Below, piece after piece: positions 24,285 to 40,616 of a DNA stretch of 64,000 bases. Position numbers and translations under genes: made by a program. Source of the DNA: an uncultured Prevotellaceae bacterium (GTDB lineage Bacteria > Bacteroidota > Bacteroidia > Bacteroidales > Bacteroidaceae); NCBI GenBank assembly GCA_902775605.1, contig CACYNE010000008.1, positions 466 to 64,465 of the forward strand. Reading direction: 5' to 3'. The notes beneath the pieces were generated by a model. That model saw nothing but the letters and a program-made list of their open reading frames with translations, was not told the origin of the DNA and did no database searches. Every line of letters begins with the position of its first letter. Position 1 is the stretch's first letter.

Positions 24285-24351
24285 CAAAGTTACGGAGAGT
24301 TGGCAAAACAAGTGTCCCACTATAGGAAAACCATGTCCCAAATCAGGAAAA
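24285..24351 (-). promoter_or_regulatory. Promoter with tandem 21-bp-period operator repeats
   Basis: TAACTTTG box (24285-24292); TGTCCCA..GGAAAA at 24313 and 24334. Confidence 0.8.
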
Positions 24352-24353
24352 TC

Positions 24354-26066
24354 TTACGAATTCTCTGATTTTTTGGCGTTTGTCACCTGACGATACTCTG
24401 TGCATGTCATGCCGTAGGCATTACGGAAGAGGCGTGCCAGGGTAGAACGGCTGGGTATGCCCGACAACTCGCCGATAACGGCAATGGAATCGTCGGTGGC
24501 CTTCAGCAGACGGGCAACATGCTCCAGACGGTAGCGGGTGATGAAGTCATTGACTGTTTCGCCGTGTGAACACTCGCGGATAGCCTGCTCAACATACTTC
24601 GCGTTAGTGGCGAGCATCTGGGCAAGTGTATCGCGGTTCAGCGTCTCGTCGGTATAAGGTTTTTGCTCGGCCATGAGGTCACAGATGCGGCGGAAAAGCT
24701 GTTGCTCAGTAGTGAGACGTTCCTCGGGCTCTGCCTTCAACTGCTCGATGGCCTGCTGCTCCTCCTGTTCACGCTGTTCTATCTCGGCCACCAAGCGACG
24801 GTTCTTTTCAAGGAGCACCTTGTTATATCTGGCAGTTCGCCAGAACAGGTAACCTATGAGCAGGCTGATGAGTGCGGCAGCAATGGCGAGGATGCGATAG
24901 ATAGTGGACTTGGTCTCTTCGTCCTTCAGCAGCATCTCTTTCTCCTGCGTCTTCATCTGCTGGGCATACTTCAGTGTCTCTGCCTGACGCTCGCGCTGCA
25001 CCAGACTGTCTGTCAATACTATATTGCGCAAGAGTTGCTCGTATGCCTCATGACTCTTTCCAATCTTGTCTAAGCCCATAGCGTAGGTTTTCAACCACGA
25101 TGCATAATCTATGGAGATGGTATCCATACGCTCTTTGTAGTAGGGCTCCAAGACTGCACAGATTTGGCTGATGCGCTGGCTGCTTCCGGAGAGAATATAA
25201 TAACTCAGAATGTCGCTCTGATGATCTGGGAGCTGACTGCATGGGAGATTCTCGAAAAGCTGTGCACTATGGCTGGCAGCAGCTTTGTCACCCAGCTGGT
25301 ACTGGCAGTAGGCCATAATGCTATAGATATATGCACGCTGTTGGTCAACAAAGCCAGCTGGCGCGGTGGTATATTCTTTCTCGATACGGTCAATCACTGG
25401 CAAACGCTCCTCAGTGAGTTTCAAAGCGCGGGCAAAGTCCCCATGGTTAATGGCATGACGCGCCACGCTGCCAAGATAGGCTGAGAACATCGGCATGGCT
25501 TGGATGTTGGTGCTACCACGGAACAGATCCAGCGAGCGGTCTAGATACTCGACGCCGCTGCCGGTCTGCACCTTTTCCATCGTCTCTCCCGCTTCAAAAT
25601 AGAACATGGCCTCCTCGCCATTCCAGCCATACTCATGTGCTATCTTTGCACCCTCGATGGCATAGCTGATGGCATCCTGGTATGTCTTTGAATCTTTGTT
25701 GCCGATAGAAGTCAACAGATGGTAGGTTCTGACGCGCTGCAGACTGTCTGGTGCCTGGTCCTGATTGTTCAGAATGGCCATACAATACTCGCGTGCTTTA
25801 TCAATATCTTCCTTTGAGCCTTTCACTAAATAAATCTGGGCTCGCATCCAGTTGGCATAGTTTGCGTCGGCTACCCCCTTCATCTGGGCAGTGTCCACCA
25901 GTCCGAGGGCATGCTCTGGCTGTACCATTATTGACTGGCGGATGTACTCCCATGTATAGATACTATCGGCCTCGGAGCCCTGCTCCGTATTACCATGATT
26001 TGTGCACCCTACCATCAGAGACAGTAAGGTGCACAGTATGAACACACTCTTTTTAATCATTTTCAT
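24354..26066 (-). CDS. Membrane-anchored AraC-family regulator with helical (TPR-like) extracytoplasmic sensor
   Basis: N-terminal signal ending LMVGC, long helical region, TM ILAIAAALISLLIGYLFW, C-terminal HTH (LAQMLATNAKY..RYRLEHVARLL..LFRNAYGMTCTEYR). Confidence 0.88.
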   Translation of the reverse strand: MKMIKKSVFILCTLLSLMVGCTNHGNTEQGSEADSIYTWEYIRQSIMVQPEHALGLVDTAQMKGVADANYANWMRAQIYLVKGSKEDIDKAREYCMAILNNQDQAPDSLQRVRTYHLLTSIGNKDSKTYQDAISYAIEGAKIAHEYGWNGEEAMFYFEAGETMEKVQTGSGVEYLDRSLDLFRGSTNIQAMPMFSAYLGSVARHAINHGDFARALKLTEERLPVIDRIEKEYTTAPAGFVDQQRAYIYSIMAYCQYQLGDKAAASHSAQLFENLPCSQLPDHQSDILSYYILSGSSQRISQICAVLEPYYKERMDTISIDYASWLKTYAMGLDKIGKSHEAYEQLLRNIVLTDSLVQRERQAETLKYAQQMKTQEKEMLLKDEETKSTIYRILAIAAALISLLIGYLFWRTARYNKVLLEKNRRLVAEIEQREQEEQQAIEQLKAEPEERLTTEQQLFRRICDLMAEQKPYTDETLNRDTLAQMLATNAKYVEQAIRECSHGETVNDFITRYRLEHVARLLKATDDSIAVIGELSGIPSRSTLARLFRNAYGMTCTEYRQVTNAKKSENS

Positions 26067-26070
26067 TAGT

Positions 26071-26103
26071 TCACTTCTTTTTCTCAATCTGTTCGTTAGT
26101 CAT
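26071..26103 (-). pseudogene. Truncated precursor-leader relic MTNEQIEKKK*
   Basis: ATGACTAACGAACAGATTGAG identical to the P2 start; stop 4 nt before the regulator ATG. Confidence 0.7.
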
Positions 26104-39326: not shown

Positions 39327-39364
39327 AATCTTGAAGTTGTTTAATTATAATGGTTGTTTATTTA

Positions 39365-40450
39365 TTATTTGTTGCCTGTGACCAGTGCTTTCTTCCCGTT
39401 CCTGATATATAATCCCTTTCCTTGCGGGCGACTGTTCAGGCGGCGGCCCTGCATGTCATAGTAGATATCCGTGGAAGAATTGTGCTGCATGGTCTTGACA
39501 GCACTCGTTTCATTCTCAATGATGTTCTGAAAGAGAGCCCAGACGGGATGCTGGCGATAGGCGTCAATCGTTCCTTGAGGGACGATGATGACGGTATGAT
39601 AGTCAGCAAAGACGACGTTGCCAACGGTGGGCGGCACGCCACTTCTCAGTACCAGAGTGTCGATGGGTGTACCTTCACGAAAGACGCTGTCATCAATGCA
39701 TTCAAGGGTCGAGGGTAACGTCAGTTTGTGGAGACTAGGGCAGAAGATAAAAGCCGACTCGCCAATCATCGTGATACCCTCAGCGATGGTGACAGAAAAA
39801 AGCGATGTGCATCCCCAAAATACCTCTTCGGGCACCTTCTTCATCGTTCCCGGCAGGCTCACGTTGGTCAGTTCTGCGCAGTCACCGAAGGCTACGGCGC
39901 CCAACGAAGTGAAGCCCTCTGGCAGGACGAGATCGATAGCCAGCCTGCTGTCGTATTGGAAGGCAAATTCGTCTATCATTTTCAGCTTGGAAGGAATATT
40001 GATGTCTCGCAAATTGAAGCATTCGCGGAAAGCACAGTAGCCTATTGTGTCAACACTTTGACCCAGAGATACTGTCTCAAGACTGCTGCACTGGTTGAAG
40101 GCCCAAAAGCCGATGTTGGTGACGCTGTTGGGCAGTTTCACAGAAGTCACCTTGTCGCAACGGTAAAGCGCCTCGTCGCCAACACGGGTAACAGCATGAT
40201 TTCTTCCGTCGAAAGGCACAGAATCAGGCACTACTACATCACCCTGTGGTTTTGTATGTCCAGTCCACGACTCATTGTTCTCCCTATCGAAGTCGGGCCA
40301 TATCGGCGACACCAACGTAGCGTTACCCACAGAGTCGATGGTGTAGTACAGCGTCACATTCTGATGGGTGTAGCAGAATATTGAGTCCTGAGCTTTTGCA
40401 CCCAGCGTTGCCGTCAGGAGGATGACAGCAAAAAGAACCATTCGTTTCAT
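39365..40450 (-). CDS. BspA-like LRR_5 protein with T9SS tail (copy 2)
   Basis: Closely aligns with 35265-36389 over the mature region. Confidence 0.88.
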   Translation of the reverse strand: MKRMVLFAVILLTATLGAKAQDSIFCYTHQNVTLYYTIDSVGNATLVSPIWPDFDRENNESWTGHTKPQGDVVVPDSVPFDGRNHAVTRVGDEALYRCDKVTSVKLPNSVTNIGFWAFNQCSSLETVSLGQSVDTIGYCAFRECFNLRDINIPSKLKMIDEFAFQYDSRLAIDLVLPEGFTSLGAVAFGDCAELTNVSLPGTMKKVPEEVFWGCTSLFSVTIAEGITMIGESAFIFCPSLHKLTLPSTLECIDDSVFREGTPIDTLVLRSGVPPTVGNVVFADYHTVIIVPQGTIDAYRQHPVWALFQNIIENETSAVKTMQHNSSTDIYYDMQGRRLNSRPQGKGLYIRNGKKALVTGNK

Positions 40451-40523
40451 TTTATCATTATTAGAAAGGATTATTCATTGATTATTTGCAGGGTATCTCC
40501 ACTATGTTGATTGATTACGAGTG

Positions 40524-40616
40524 CAAAATTACGTTGATTCATGGAAACAGATGTCCCATAATAGGAAATAAATGTCTCAAAACTGGGAAAAATACACTTT
40601 TTGCTGTTTTGAGACA
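40524..40616 (-). promoter_or_regulatory. Promoter with the same tandem operator repeats plus an inverted copy
   Basis: TAATTTTG box (40524-40531); repeats at 40552 and 40573; TGAGACA at 40610. Confidence 0.8.

Follow-up and report, generated by a model that had tools for sequence, protein, structure and literature searches.

The MarA/SoxS/Rob proteins and the class II AraC activators (AraC at I1-I2, RhaS, MelR, and XylS) bind asymmetric sites of 17–20 base pairs (bp) in which two blocks lie one helical turn apart, and the tandem direct repeats of the class II AraC-family activators reach the position equivalent to -35. In Bacteroides, the predicted operators of the hybrid two-component systems (HTCS) are direct repeats of two 12–16-bp sites with a mean centre distance of 21 bp, and the motifs of paralogues are related (Ravcheev et al. 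2013, PMC3878776). A membrane-bound activator has been described in Vibrio cholerae, where TfoS activates the tfoR promoter and is proposed to work via ligand-driven dimerisation; it combines a signal sequence and a periplasmic domain with a single membrane helix and an AraC-like helix-turn-helix (HTH) (PMC3903286). Here, we examine computationally a tandem repeat at three promoters in a 64,000-nucleotide stretch of the genome of an uncultured rumen Prevotellaceae bacterium of the Prevotella type (GCA_902775605.1, contig CACYNE010000008.1, positions 466 to 64,465), hereafter called the window. We consider it probable that this repeat is the operator of membrane-anchored one-component regulators with a predicted tetratricopeptide repeat (TPR) sensor, a transmembrane helix, a coiled coil, and an AraC/XylS domain, and that these regulators activate genes for secreted proteases, surface proteins, exported peptides, and an exporter.

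Known counterparts exist for both the operator geometry (the HTCS operators) and the membrane-bound AraC activator (TfoS). As in the Bacteroides HTCS, direct repeats spaced ~21 bp apart lie upstream of Bacteroidota promoters and would be read by the C-terminal AraC-type domain of a membrane protein. Unlike those systems, the regulator in the window has no histidine kinase (HisKA, HATPase_c), receiver, or periplasmic beta-propeller and is a one-component protein with a TPR sensor, and the targets are proteases, leucine-rich repeat (LRR) proteins, and exported peptides instead of polysaccharide utilisation loci. As read from the sequence, the likeness to TfoS would cover a predicted signal, an extracytoplasmic domain, a single membrane helix, and a cytoplasmic AraC HTH. 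The two proteins belong to different phyla, with a predicted TPR sensor here and chitin-oligosaccharide sensing in TfoS. TfoS also differs in that its one known target is the small RNA tfoR, that no tandem 21-bp operator has been described for it, and that it lacks a partner micro-protein. The new elements are a one-component architecture with a TPR sensor in Prevotellaceae, a micro-protein as an obligatory neighbour, a specificity pattern linking helix to base, and a putative regulon joining exported peptidases, LRR proteins, and a double-glycine peptide library with an exporter. No described membrane TPR-AraC regulator in Prevotella or Bacteroidota was found in the literature searched. Rumen Prevotellaceae rank with the most abundant gut bacteria but also with those whose genetics is least understood, and hardly anything is known about their regulation of secreted proteases, surface LRR proteins, and peptide production.

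According to the original prediction, one tandem operator recurs with identical spacing at three promoters of the window, and all six copies were recovered. Because every relevant gene of the region is encoded on the minus strand, the motif was read on that strand, where it appears as TTTCC-N5/6-TG(G/A)(G/C)ACA twice, the complement of TGT(C/G)(C/T)CA-N-GGAAA. A search of the window for TTTCC-N4-7-TGRSACA returned 6 matches against 0.17 expected, and at least 6 were obtained in 0 of 100 shuffles. The matches, all on the minus strand, are at 24313, 24334, 36505, 36526, 40552, and 40573. At the first promoter (24.3 kilobases, kb), the distal repeat TTTCCTGATTTGGGACA (24334–24350) begins 4 nucleotides (nt) past the stop codon of the regulator gene, and the proximal repeat TTTCCTATAGTGGGACA (24313–24329) lies 20 nt upstream of the -7 box TAACTTTG (24285–24292). 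This box, the sole minus-strand TAnnTTTG between 21114 and 36477, belongs to the promoter of a small membrane protein gene and a peptide array. The 36.5-kb promoter has the distal repeat TTTCCCAGTTTTGGGACA (36526–36543), the proximal repeat TTTCCAGCCATGACACA (36505–36521), and the -7 box TAAATTTG (36477–36484), while the 40.5-kb promoter has TTTCCCAGTTTTGAGACA (40573–40590), TTTCCTATTATGGGACA (40552–40568), and TAATTTTG (40524–40531) in the same order; all nine elements have minus-strand orientation. The period between TGRSACA cores is exactly 21 bp, or two helical turns, at each of the three sites, as had been proposed, and the distance given earlier as 21 nt from the first copy to the edge of the TAnnTTTG box equals exactly 20 nt between the promoter-proximal core and the box. 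Each repeat is 17–18 bp long, and the starts of TTTCC and TGRSACA are 10–11 bp apart within each repeat at all sites. In its sequence geometry, this is the asymmetric AraC/XylS-type site of 17–20 bp with two blocks about one helical turn apart. It was also observed that the 36.5-kb and 40.5-kb promoters form a duplicated unit, with 79% identity over the intergenic region, terminator included, and 81% amino-acid identity between the LRR genes behind them. The 24.3-kb site has only the motif in common with these two, which bears out the earlier description of it as otherwise dissimilar.

We then considered the whole assembly (2.99 Mb, 83 contigs, 49.5% G+C), in which the window is C8:466-64465. 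The single repeat has 15 copies in the genome, five of which are isolated in apparent coding regions, with neither a partner repeat nor a -7 box at operator spacing. The full pattern TGRSACA-N14-TGRSACA-N20-TAnnTTTG had 7 matches in the genome and 0 in a reversed control. Across a 7 x 7 matrix of spacings, all 7 of these fell at N14/N20, and the remaining 48 combinations yielded one match in total. With a relaxed core (C allowed at the first base, A, G, or T at the last, and A at the fourth), nine sites were found, again with 0 in the reversed control. The core-to-core distance was 21 bp in all nine of these sites and in all 75 instances of the wider collection described below; this spacing was imposed by the scan, but the matrix gives no alternative. 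A reading of the repeats as chance or duplication was rejected on the spacing matrix, the reversed control, and the presence of sites on six other contigs.

A duplication relic would agree with the fact that two of the window sites are copies of each other, and a 5-bp hairpin (TCCCA/TGGGA) possible in the distal repeat at 36.5 kb would suit an RNA-level hairpin or terminator in the 3′ untranslated region (UTR) after the regulator gene. We regard this pair of explanations as exceedingly improbable. The RNA element was rejected because no Rfam family was found in 21000–41000 and the folding energy was no better than that of shuffles (z of -0.1 to 0.2). Conservation of the hairpin from site to site is lacking, some sites belong to promoters with no preceding regulator gene (on contigs C19, C20, and C45), and the distance to the -7 box is invariant.

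The gene adjoining the 24.3-kb operator (24354–26066, minus strand, ATG at 26066) encodes the regulator, of 570 amino acids (aa). Its predicted order is a lipoprotein signal, a TPR-like domain outside the cytoplasm, a single hydrophobic helix, a coiled coil, and, at the C-terminus, an AraC/XylS double HTH. The putative lipoprotein-type signal ends in LMVGC, and the hydrophobic stretch IYRILAIAAALISLLIGYLFW is followed by WR and a charged heptad region. Pfam assigned solely HTH_18 (PF12833, E 6.6e-13, 49.2 bits against a cut-off of 33.6) and HTH_AraC (PF00165, E 1.6e-7) to the window regulator, with weak TPR hits in its paralogues. In phmmer, residues 19–118 of its last 128 aa aligned to residues 7–105 of the 107 in SoxS, and MarA was matched too. 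The double HTH thus aligns with SoxS and MarA over its full length; unlike MarA and SoxS, which are soluble monomers, the domain here would be tethered to the membrane via a coiled coil and would work at a -33/-7 Bacteroidota promoter. The earlier attribution of the repeats to an AraC-type protein is therefore well placed, given that they abut -33, match the HTCS geometry (PMC3878776), and lie next to a gene with a complete AraC/XylS domain. A profile search of 1.8 billion proteins returned 284 clusters at E <= 1e-30. In other proteins (P0048, P0066, P0094), the module of TPR plus membrane helix is fused to HisKA/HATPase or SpoIIE phosphatase outputs, which suggests that the N-terminal half is a genuine input module shuffled between output types. 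The arrangement also differs from that of the RRNPP regulators, which have a cytoplasmic TPR, an N-terminal XRE-type HTH, and re-imported peptides, in that the predicted TPR precedes the membrane helix, behind a putative lipoprotein signal, and the AraC domain is C-terminal.

The genome has three close paralogous regulators, on C8 (the window regulator), C32, and C27. They have 50–53% identity over the C-terminal matched region (~ residues 330–569) and 32–35% over the whole protein, with the membrane helix, linker, and DNA-binding domain highly conserved and the sensor halves only distantly alike. The recognition helices of the C8 and C32 proteins are nearly identical (NAKYVEQAIRE versus NAKYIVQAIRE in HTH1, and IPSRSTLARLFRN in HTH2 of both). 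The original prediction of a single autoregulated regulon is accordingly too simple where it pairs one regulator with one regulon, while its autoregulatory part remains plausible, as set out below.

Which protein reads the repeats can be approached through related loci. A scan with one genome per species gave 59 of these, all from rumen Prevotellaceae and mostly from metagenome-assembled genomes, together with Xylanibacter ruminicola D31d. In 43 of the 59, core-N14-core-N20-TAnnTTTG lies no more than 400 nt downstream of the regulator stop codon; among the others, several are truncated at a contig end or place the operator ahead of the regulator. Together with the own genome, 75 distinct operator instances were collected. 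We found that regulators with SRSSFFR in HTH2 go with cores ending in ACT (with one exception, a proximal core ending in ACG), and those with SR(R/P)TFYR or IPSRxTLAR go with cores ending in ACA. Regulators with NRTYIYDA in HTH1 have an upstream block TTTG(T/C)A replacing TTTCC. A natural chimera (L072, also found as G054), whose HTH1 and HTH2 come from different clades, has the matching operator, TTTCC with TGGCACA. Within one clade, SRV accompanies TGAAACA in 6 of 6 cases and SRA accompanies TGAGACA in 5 of 6. The core variants of the two repeats at a site are usually identical or almost so, which is what a pair of identical domains would require. This covariation assigns the TTTCC block to HTH1 and TGRSACA to HTH2, which in turn places HTH2 on the promoter side. 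It is the pattern that direct read-out would predict, and we know of no other simple explanation for it; recognition-helix residues matched to operator bases in this way amount to a proposed specificity code.

If a different regulator or an alternative sigma factor read the repeats, the adjacency of the AraC gene would be mere synteny. Further conserved blocks in these promoters, TGTTT(C/T)C and GCAnnCGAAA, would be in keeping with such a factor, but the repeat covaries with the recognition helices of the adjacent regulator, natural chimera included, and the 10–11-bp block spacing and 21-bp repeat spacing fit a double-HTH dimer. The operator and the regulator are also both rare: among 100 other genomes of the genus, the strict operator pattern had one match only, and no more than 2 of 24 sampled relatives from the genus yielded a regulator homologue. 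We attribute the rarity of the strict pattern to this patchy distribution of the regulator combined with clade-specific cores (ACT for ACA, TGAAACA). Taken together, we judge a different reading factor to be very unlikely.

The position of the repeats relative to the promoter suggests what the regulator would do once bound. The Bacteroidota sigma-A -7 box TAnnTTTG is present at 24285, 36477, and 40524, and likewise in all 75 instances, where the pattern demanded it. The -33 element of Bacteroidota promoters is reportedly TTTG, ~ 19 nt upstream of the -7 box. We observed TTTG at the -33 position in 0 of the nine own-genome operator promoters; its place is taken by the 3′ end of the proximal core (..GACA +1 nt), which ends where TTTG would be expected. 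The nearest T-rich block (TGTTT) at these promoters is only 11–16 nt from the -7 box. A sigma-70-type promoter scan is not informative for Bacteroidota. Because a good -7 box is present with no -33 TTTG, the bound regulator most likely substitutes for the -33 element and activates. We infer an arrangement in which each 17–18-bp repeat would hold one double-HTH domain, a dimer would place its two domains in head-to-tail orientation on the same face of the DNA, 21 bp apart, and the promoter-proximal domain would end at the expected position of the -33 element. The membrane-tethered dimer would then replace the missing -33 contact and activate transcription like a class II activator. The outcome is an operator with defined sequence, spacing, and orientation, assigned to a regulator family by sequence, and such operator and regulator pairs could serve as orthogonal inducible promoters in Prevotella genetics.

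Several points weigh against this interpretation or narrow it. The position beside -33 is also compatible with repression. The same protein at the same sites might block RNA polymerase until a signal arrives, turning the loop at 36.5 kb into negative autoregulation, and the proximal repeat does end at the -33 location, where repressors act too. We think this improbable, given that promoters with no -33 TTTG should be weak unaided and that tandem direct repeats ending at -35/-33 are the classic layout of class II activators (AraC, RhaS, MelR, XylS). The AraC-type HTCS domains at the same geometry (PMC3878776) and TfoS (PMC3903286) are activators as well. A second point concerns the near-identical recognition helices of the C8 and C32 paralogues, owing to which the window regulator may not occupy the window sites, or may not do so alone. 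Both paralogues may instead bind the seven TTTCC/TGRSACA sites, integrating two signals with no private loop, which is compatible with activation by this regulator family and which we hold to be a realistic option, if somewhat short of an even chance. Their sensor halves differ, and the C20 and C32 sites and the distal repeats at 36.5 and 40.5 kb have a longer form in common, TTTCCCAG(A/T)TTTG(A/G)GACA. Each paralogue has nonetheless kept its own adjacent operator, and the 24.3-kb site with TGGGACA twice, versus TGAGACA twice at the C32 site, leaves room for some discrimination. A fourth paralogue may lie beyond a contig end, and since the own genome is 86% complete, the operator list may be incomplete. 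The covariation rests on approximately three clades and one chimera, which are related and not independent events. Finally, Xylanibacter ruminicola D31d (NZ_FNRF01000004.1, ~315–322 kb) has the regulator and one operator only, which drives a small membrane protein and two LRR lipoproteins, indicating that the large regulon is specific to the lineage of the own genome. As a cultured strain carrying this minimal version, D31d makes activation by the membrane-anchored regulator directly testable.

The regulator was originally placed as the last gene of the unit starting at 36477, creating positive feedback, and this is plausible. Between the -7 box at 36477 and the regulator stop at 24354, we found no other minus-strand TAnnTTTG and no convincing terminator; the only strong one (36603–36576) is upstream of the promoter. 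The genes of the 36.5-kb unit are separated by 12–59 nt, with a peptide gene occupying the last interval. Since neither a separate -7 box nor a convincing terminator comes between the 36.5-kb promoter and the regulator gene, the regulator is plausibly the last gene of the unit, and positive autoregulation is plausible with it. In other species, the operator stands ahead of a lipoprotein gene followed by the regulator, or of a small membrane protein gene followed by the regulator, so control of the regulator's own transcript by the operator appears to recur.

The genes behind the nine operators of the genome are as follows. Behind the 24.3-kb operator, the first gene encodes a single-pass membrane protein of 66 aa (24058–24258, minus strand), followed by an array of small peptide genes with a common double-glycine-type leader and variable tails (21509–24024, minus strand), with no internal minus-strand -7 box. 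The 36.5-kb promoter precedes a packed string of genes for an LRR_5 protein, an S41 peptidase, an M13 peptidase, an S8 subtilase, a 196-aa lipoprotein, and a further M13 peptidase (26353–36389, minus strand). A gene for a 68-aa peptide with an array-type leader in which AAGS replaces GG (26115–26321, minus strand) separates the second M13 peptidase gene from that of the regulator. Behind the 40.5-kb promoter are an LRR_5 protein of 361 aa and a lipoprotein of 896 aa with a C-terminal LRR_5 (36636–40450, minus strand), and this unit is closed by an intrinsic terminator with an 11-bp stem and a T run (36576–36603, minus strand), upstream of the 36.5-kb promoter. On other contigs, the C19 site precedes a C10 (streptopain-like) peptidase with an I69 propeptide, and the C15 site precedes a small membrane protein and lipoproteins. 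The C32 and C27 sites each directly follow a paralogous regulator; the former precedes a small membrane protein fused to a lipoprotein and then more exported proteins, and the latter a small membrane protein, lipoproteins, and C11 and C10 peptidases. At C20, the operator is followed by a 177-aa protein of no known family, then pfs and luxS. The C45 operator is followed by a leader-type peptide, an HlyD-like protein, a C39-peptidase ATP-binding cassette (ABC) transporter, a second ABC transporter, a membrane-fusion protein, and a TolC-like protein. It had been suggested that a genome-wide motif scan might locate a missing exporter, and the C39-peptidase ABC transporter operon was indeed found this way, behind the same operator. 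The putative regulon therefore ties together a peptide library, an exporter, and exported peptidases on different contigs.

This wiring, with double-glycine peptide genes and an operon for a C39-peptidase ABC exporter under the same site, is that of an auto-inducing loop and resembles the peptide-pheromone circuits of the streptococcal com, blp, and rtg loci (PMC7018657), which have double-glycine peptides and peptidase-containing ABC transporters. The differences are a Gram-negative Bacteroidota host and a TPR-AraC one-component protein instead of a histidine kinase or Rgg, and the peptides acting as the signal is conjecture here. A peptide auto-induction circuit, of quorum-sensing or bacteriocin type, is in our estimation rather unlikely, but it can be outlined. 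Peptides with double-glycine leaders would be exported by the operator-controlled C39-peptidase ABC transporter and perhaps trimmed by the secreted proteases of the regulon (M13, S8, S41, C10, C11). The TPR domain would sense them outside the cytoplasm, and the AraC regulator would induce the peptides, the exporter, the proteases, and itself, with the 60–66-aa membrane protein as a feedback modulator. If the peptides are the signal, the circuit would sense peptides in a way so far undescribed for Bacteroidota.

The small membrane proteins of 60–66 aa form a conserved family that always accompanies the regulator. They are the most conserved target, encoded by the first gene behind the operator in ~35 instances. 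A membrane one-component regulator gene beside a gene for a small single-pass membrane protein is also the arrangement of ToxR-ToxS and TcpP-TcpH in Vibrio cholerae, as described for ToxR/ToxS (PMC7496328). Unlike the domain here, the DNA-binding domain of ToxR is an OmpR-type winged helix and not AraC, and an interaction between the small protein and the regulator found no support in the analyses run here. A complex prediction for the small membrane protein with the membrane and coiled-coil segment of the regulator (alignment residues 55–135) scored 0.01, which speaks neither for nor against binding, and hhalign of the small protein against the juxtamembrane segment of the regulator covered 13 columns only (IxYxxWRxxxxN) at a non-significant E of 0.14. 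Some loci encode an in-frame fusion of 172–187 aa, in which the small membrane protein continues into another hydrophobic or lipoprotein-like segment and a ~120-aa domain (L003 13949–14467, minus strand, in G000:C32; L028, L030, L032, L035, and L038). The fusion recurs in several species and is therefore no assembly error.

Further observations were made at the promoters. At 6 of the 7 TTTCC-type sites, the -7 box is immediately followed by the block GCAnnCGAAA (in the window at 24273–24284 and 36465–36476, minus strand, and at other operator promoters), which is also conserved across the 75 instances. In comparison, CGAA occurs at the same offset in only 3.6% of all TAnnTTTG boxes genome-wide. 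This block may be a start-site or 5′-UTR element specific to the regulon. A further conserved block, TGTTT(C/T)C, comes after the proximal core. An inverted TGAGACA is located ~20 nt upstream of the distal repeat, 39–40 nt from core to core, at 36563–36569 and ~40607–40613 (both plus strand), and the C20 site has a third direct core exactly 21 bp upstream of the pair (L002 6422–6428). These extra cores could be auxiliary sites for a further dimer. The 12-mer CGCCCATTTCATCGG, with only 7 copies in the genome, recurs just past stop codons, before the terminator or operator of regulator-linked loci, and once in the opposite orientation. It is seen in the window at 36613–36624 (minus strand), as a variant near 40660 (minus strand), at G000:C27:25878 and G000:C32:22572, and in L018 after the regulator stop.

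Other observations concern single genes. Directly before the start codon of the window regulator, a 10-codon leader relic (MTNEQIEKKK, then a stop) occupies 26071–26101 on the minus strand. One related species has a regulator copy lacking ~20 residues of the first HTH and another copy recombined at the C-terminus (L018 1504–3105, minus strand, and L077; L015/L074). Both copies keep an intact operator downstream, and they are probably decaying paralogues. Behind the 177-aa gene at C20 (L002 6592–8392, G000:C20), pfs (PNP_UDP_1) and luxS (PF02664) encode the two enzymes of autoinducer-2 synthesis. In another species, the homologue of the 177-aa protein is encoded inside a regulator locus, ahead of the small membrane protein and with no pfs or luxS, and the pfs-luxS pair may or may not be co-transcribed with the C20 operator target. 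Lastly, a different repeat was identified at G000:C41:19063, G000:C60:11445, and G000:C1:49541, consisting of at least three tandem 22-bp units with a TTCCCA-N4-TGGGA palindrome, for example GTTCCCACCTTGGGACTCAAAT. These units have no -7 box at the operator distance and are possibly an array of other binding sites or part of a mobile element.

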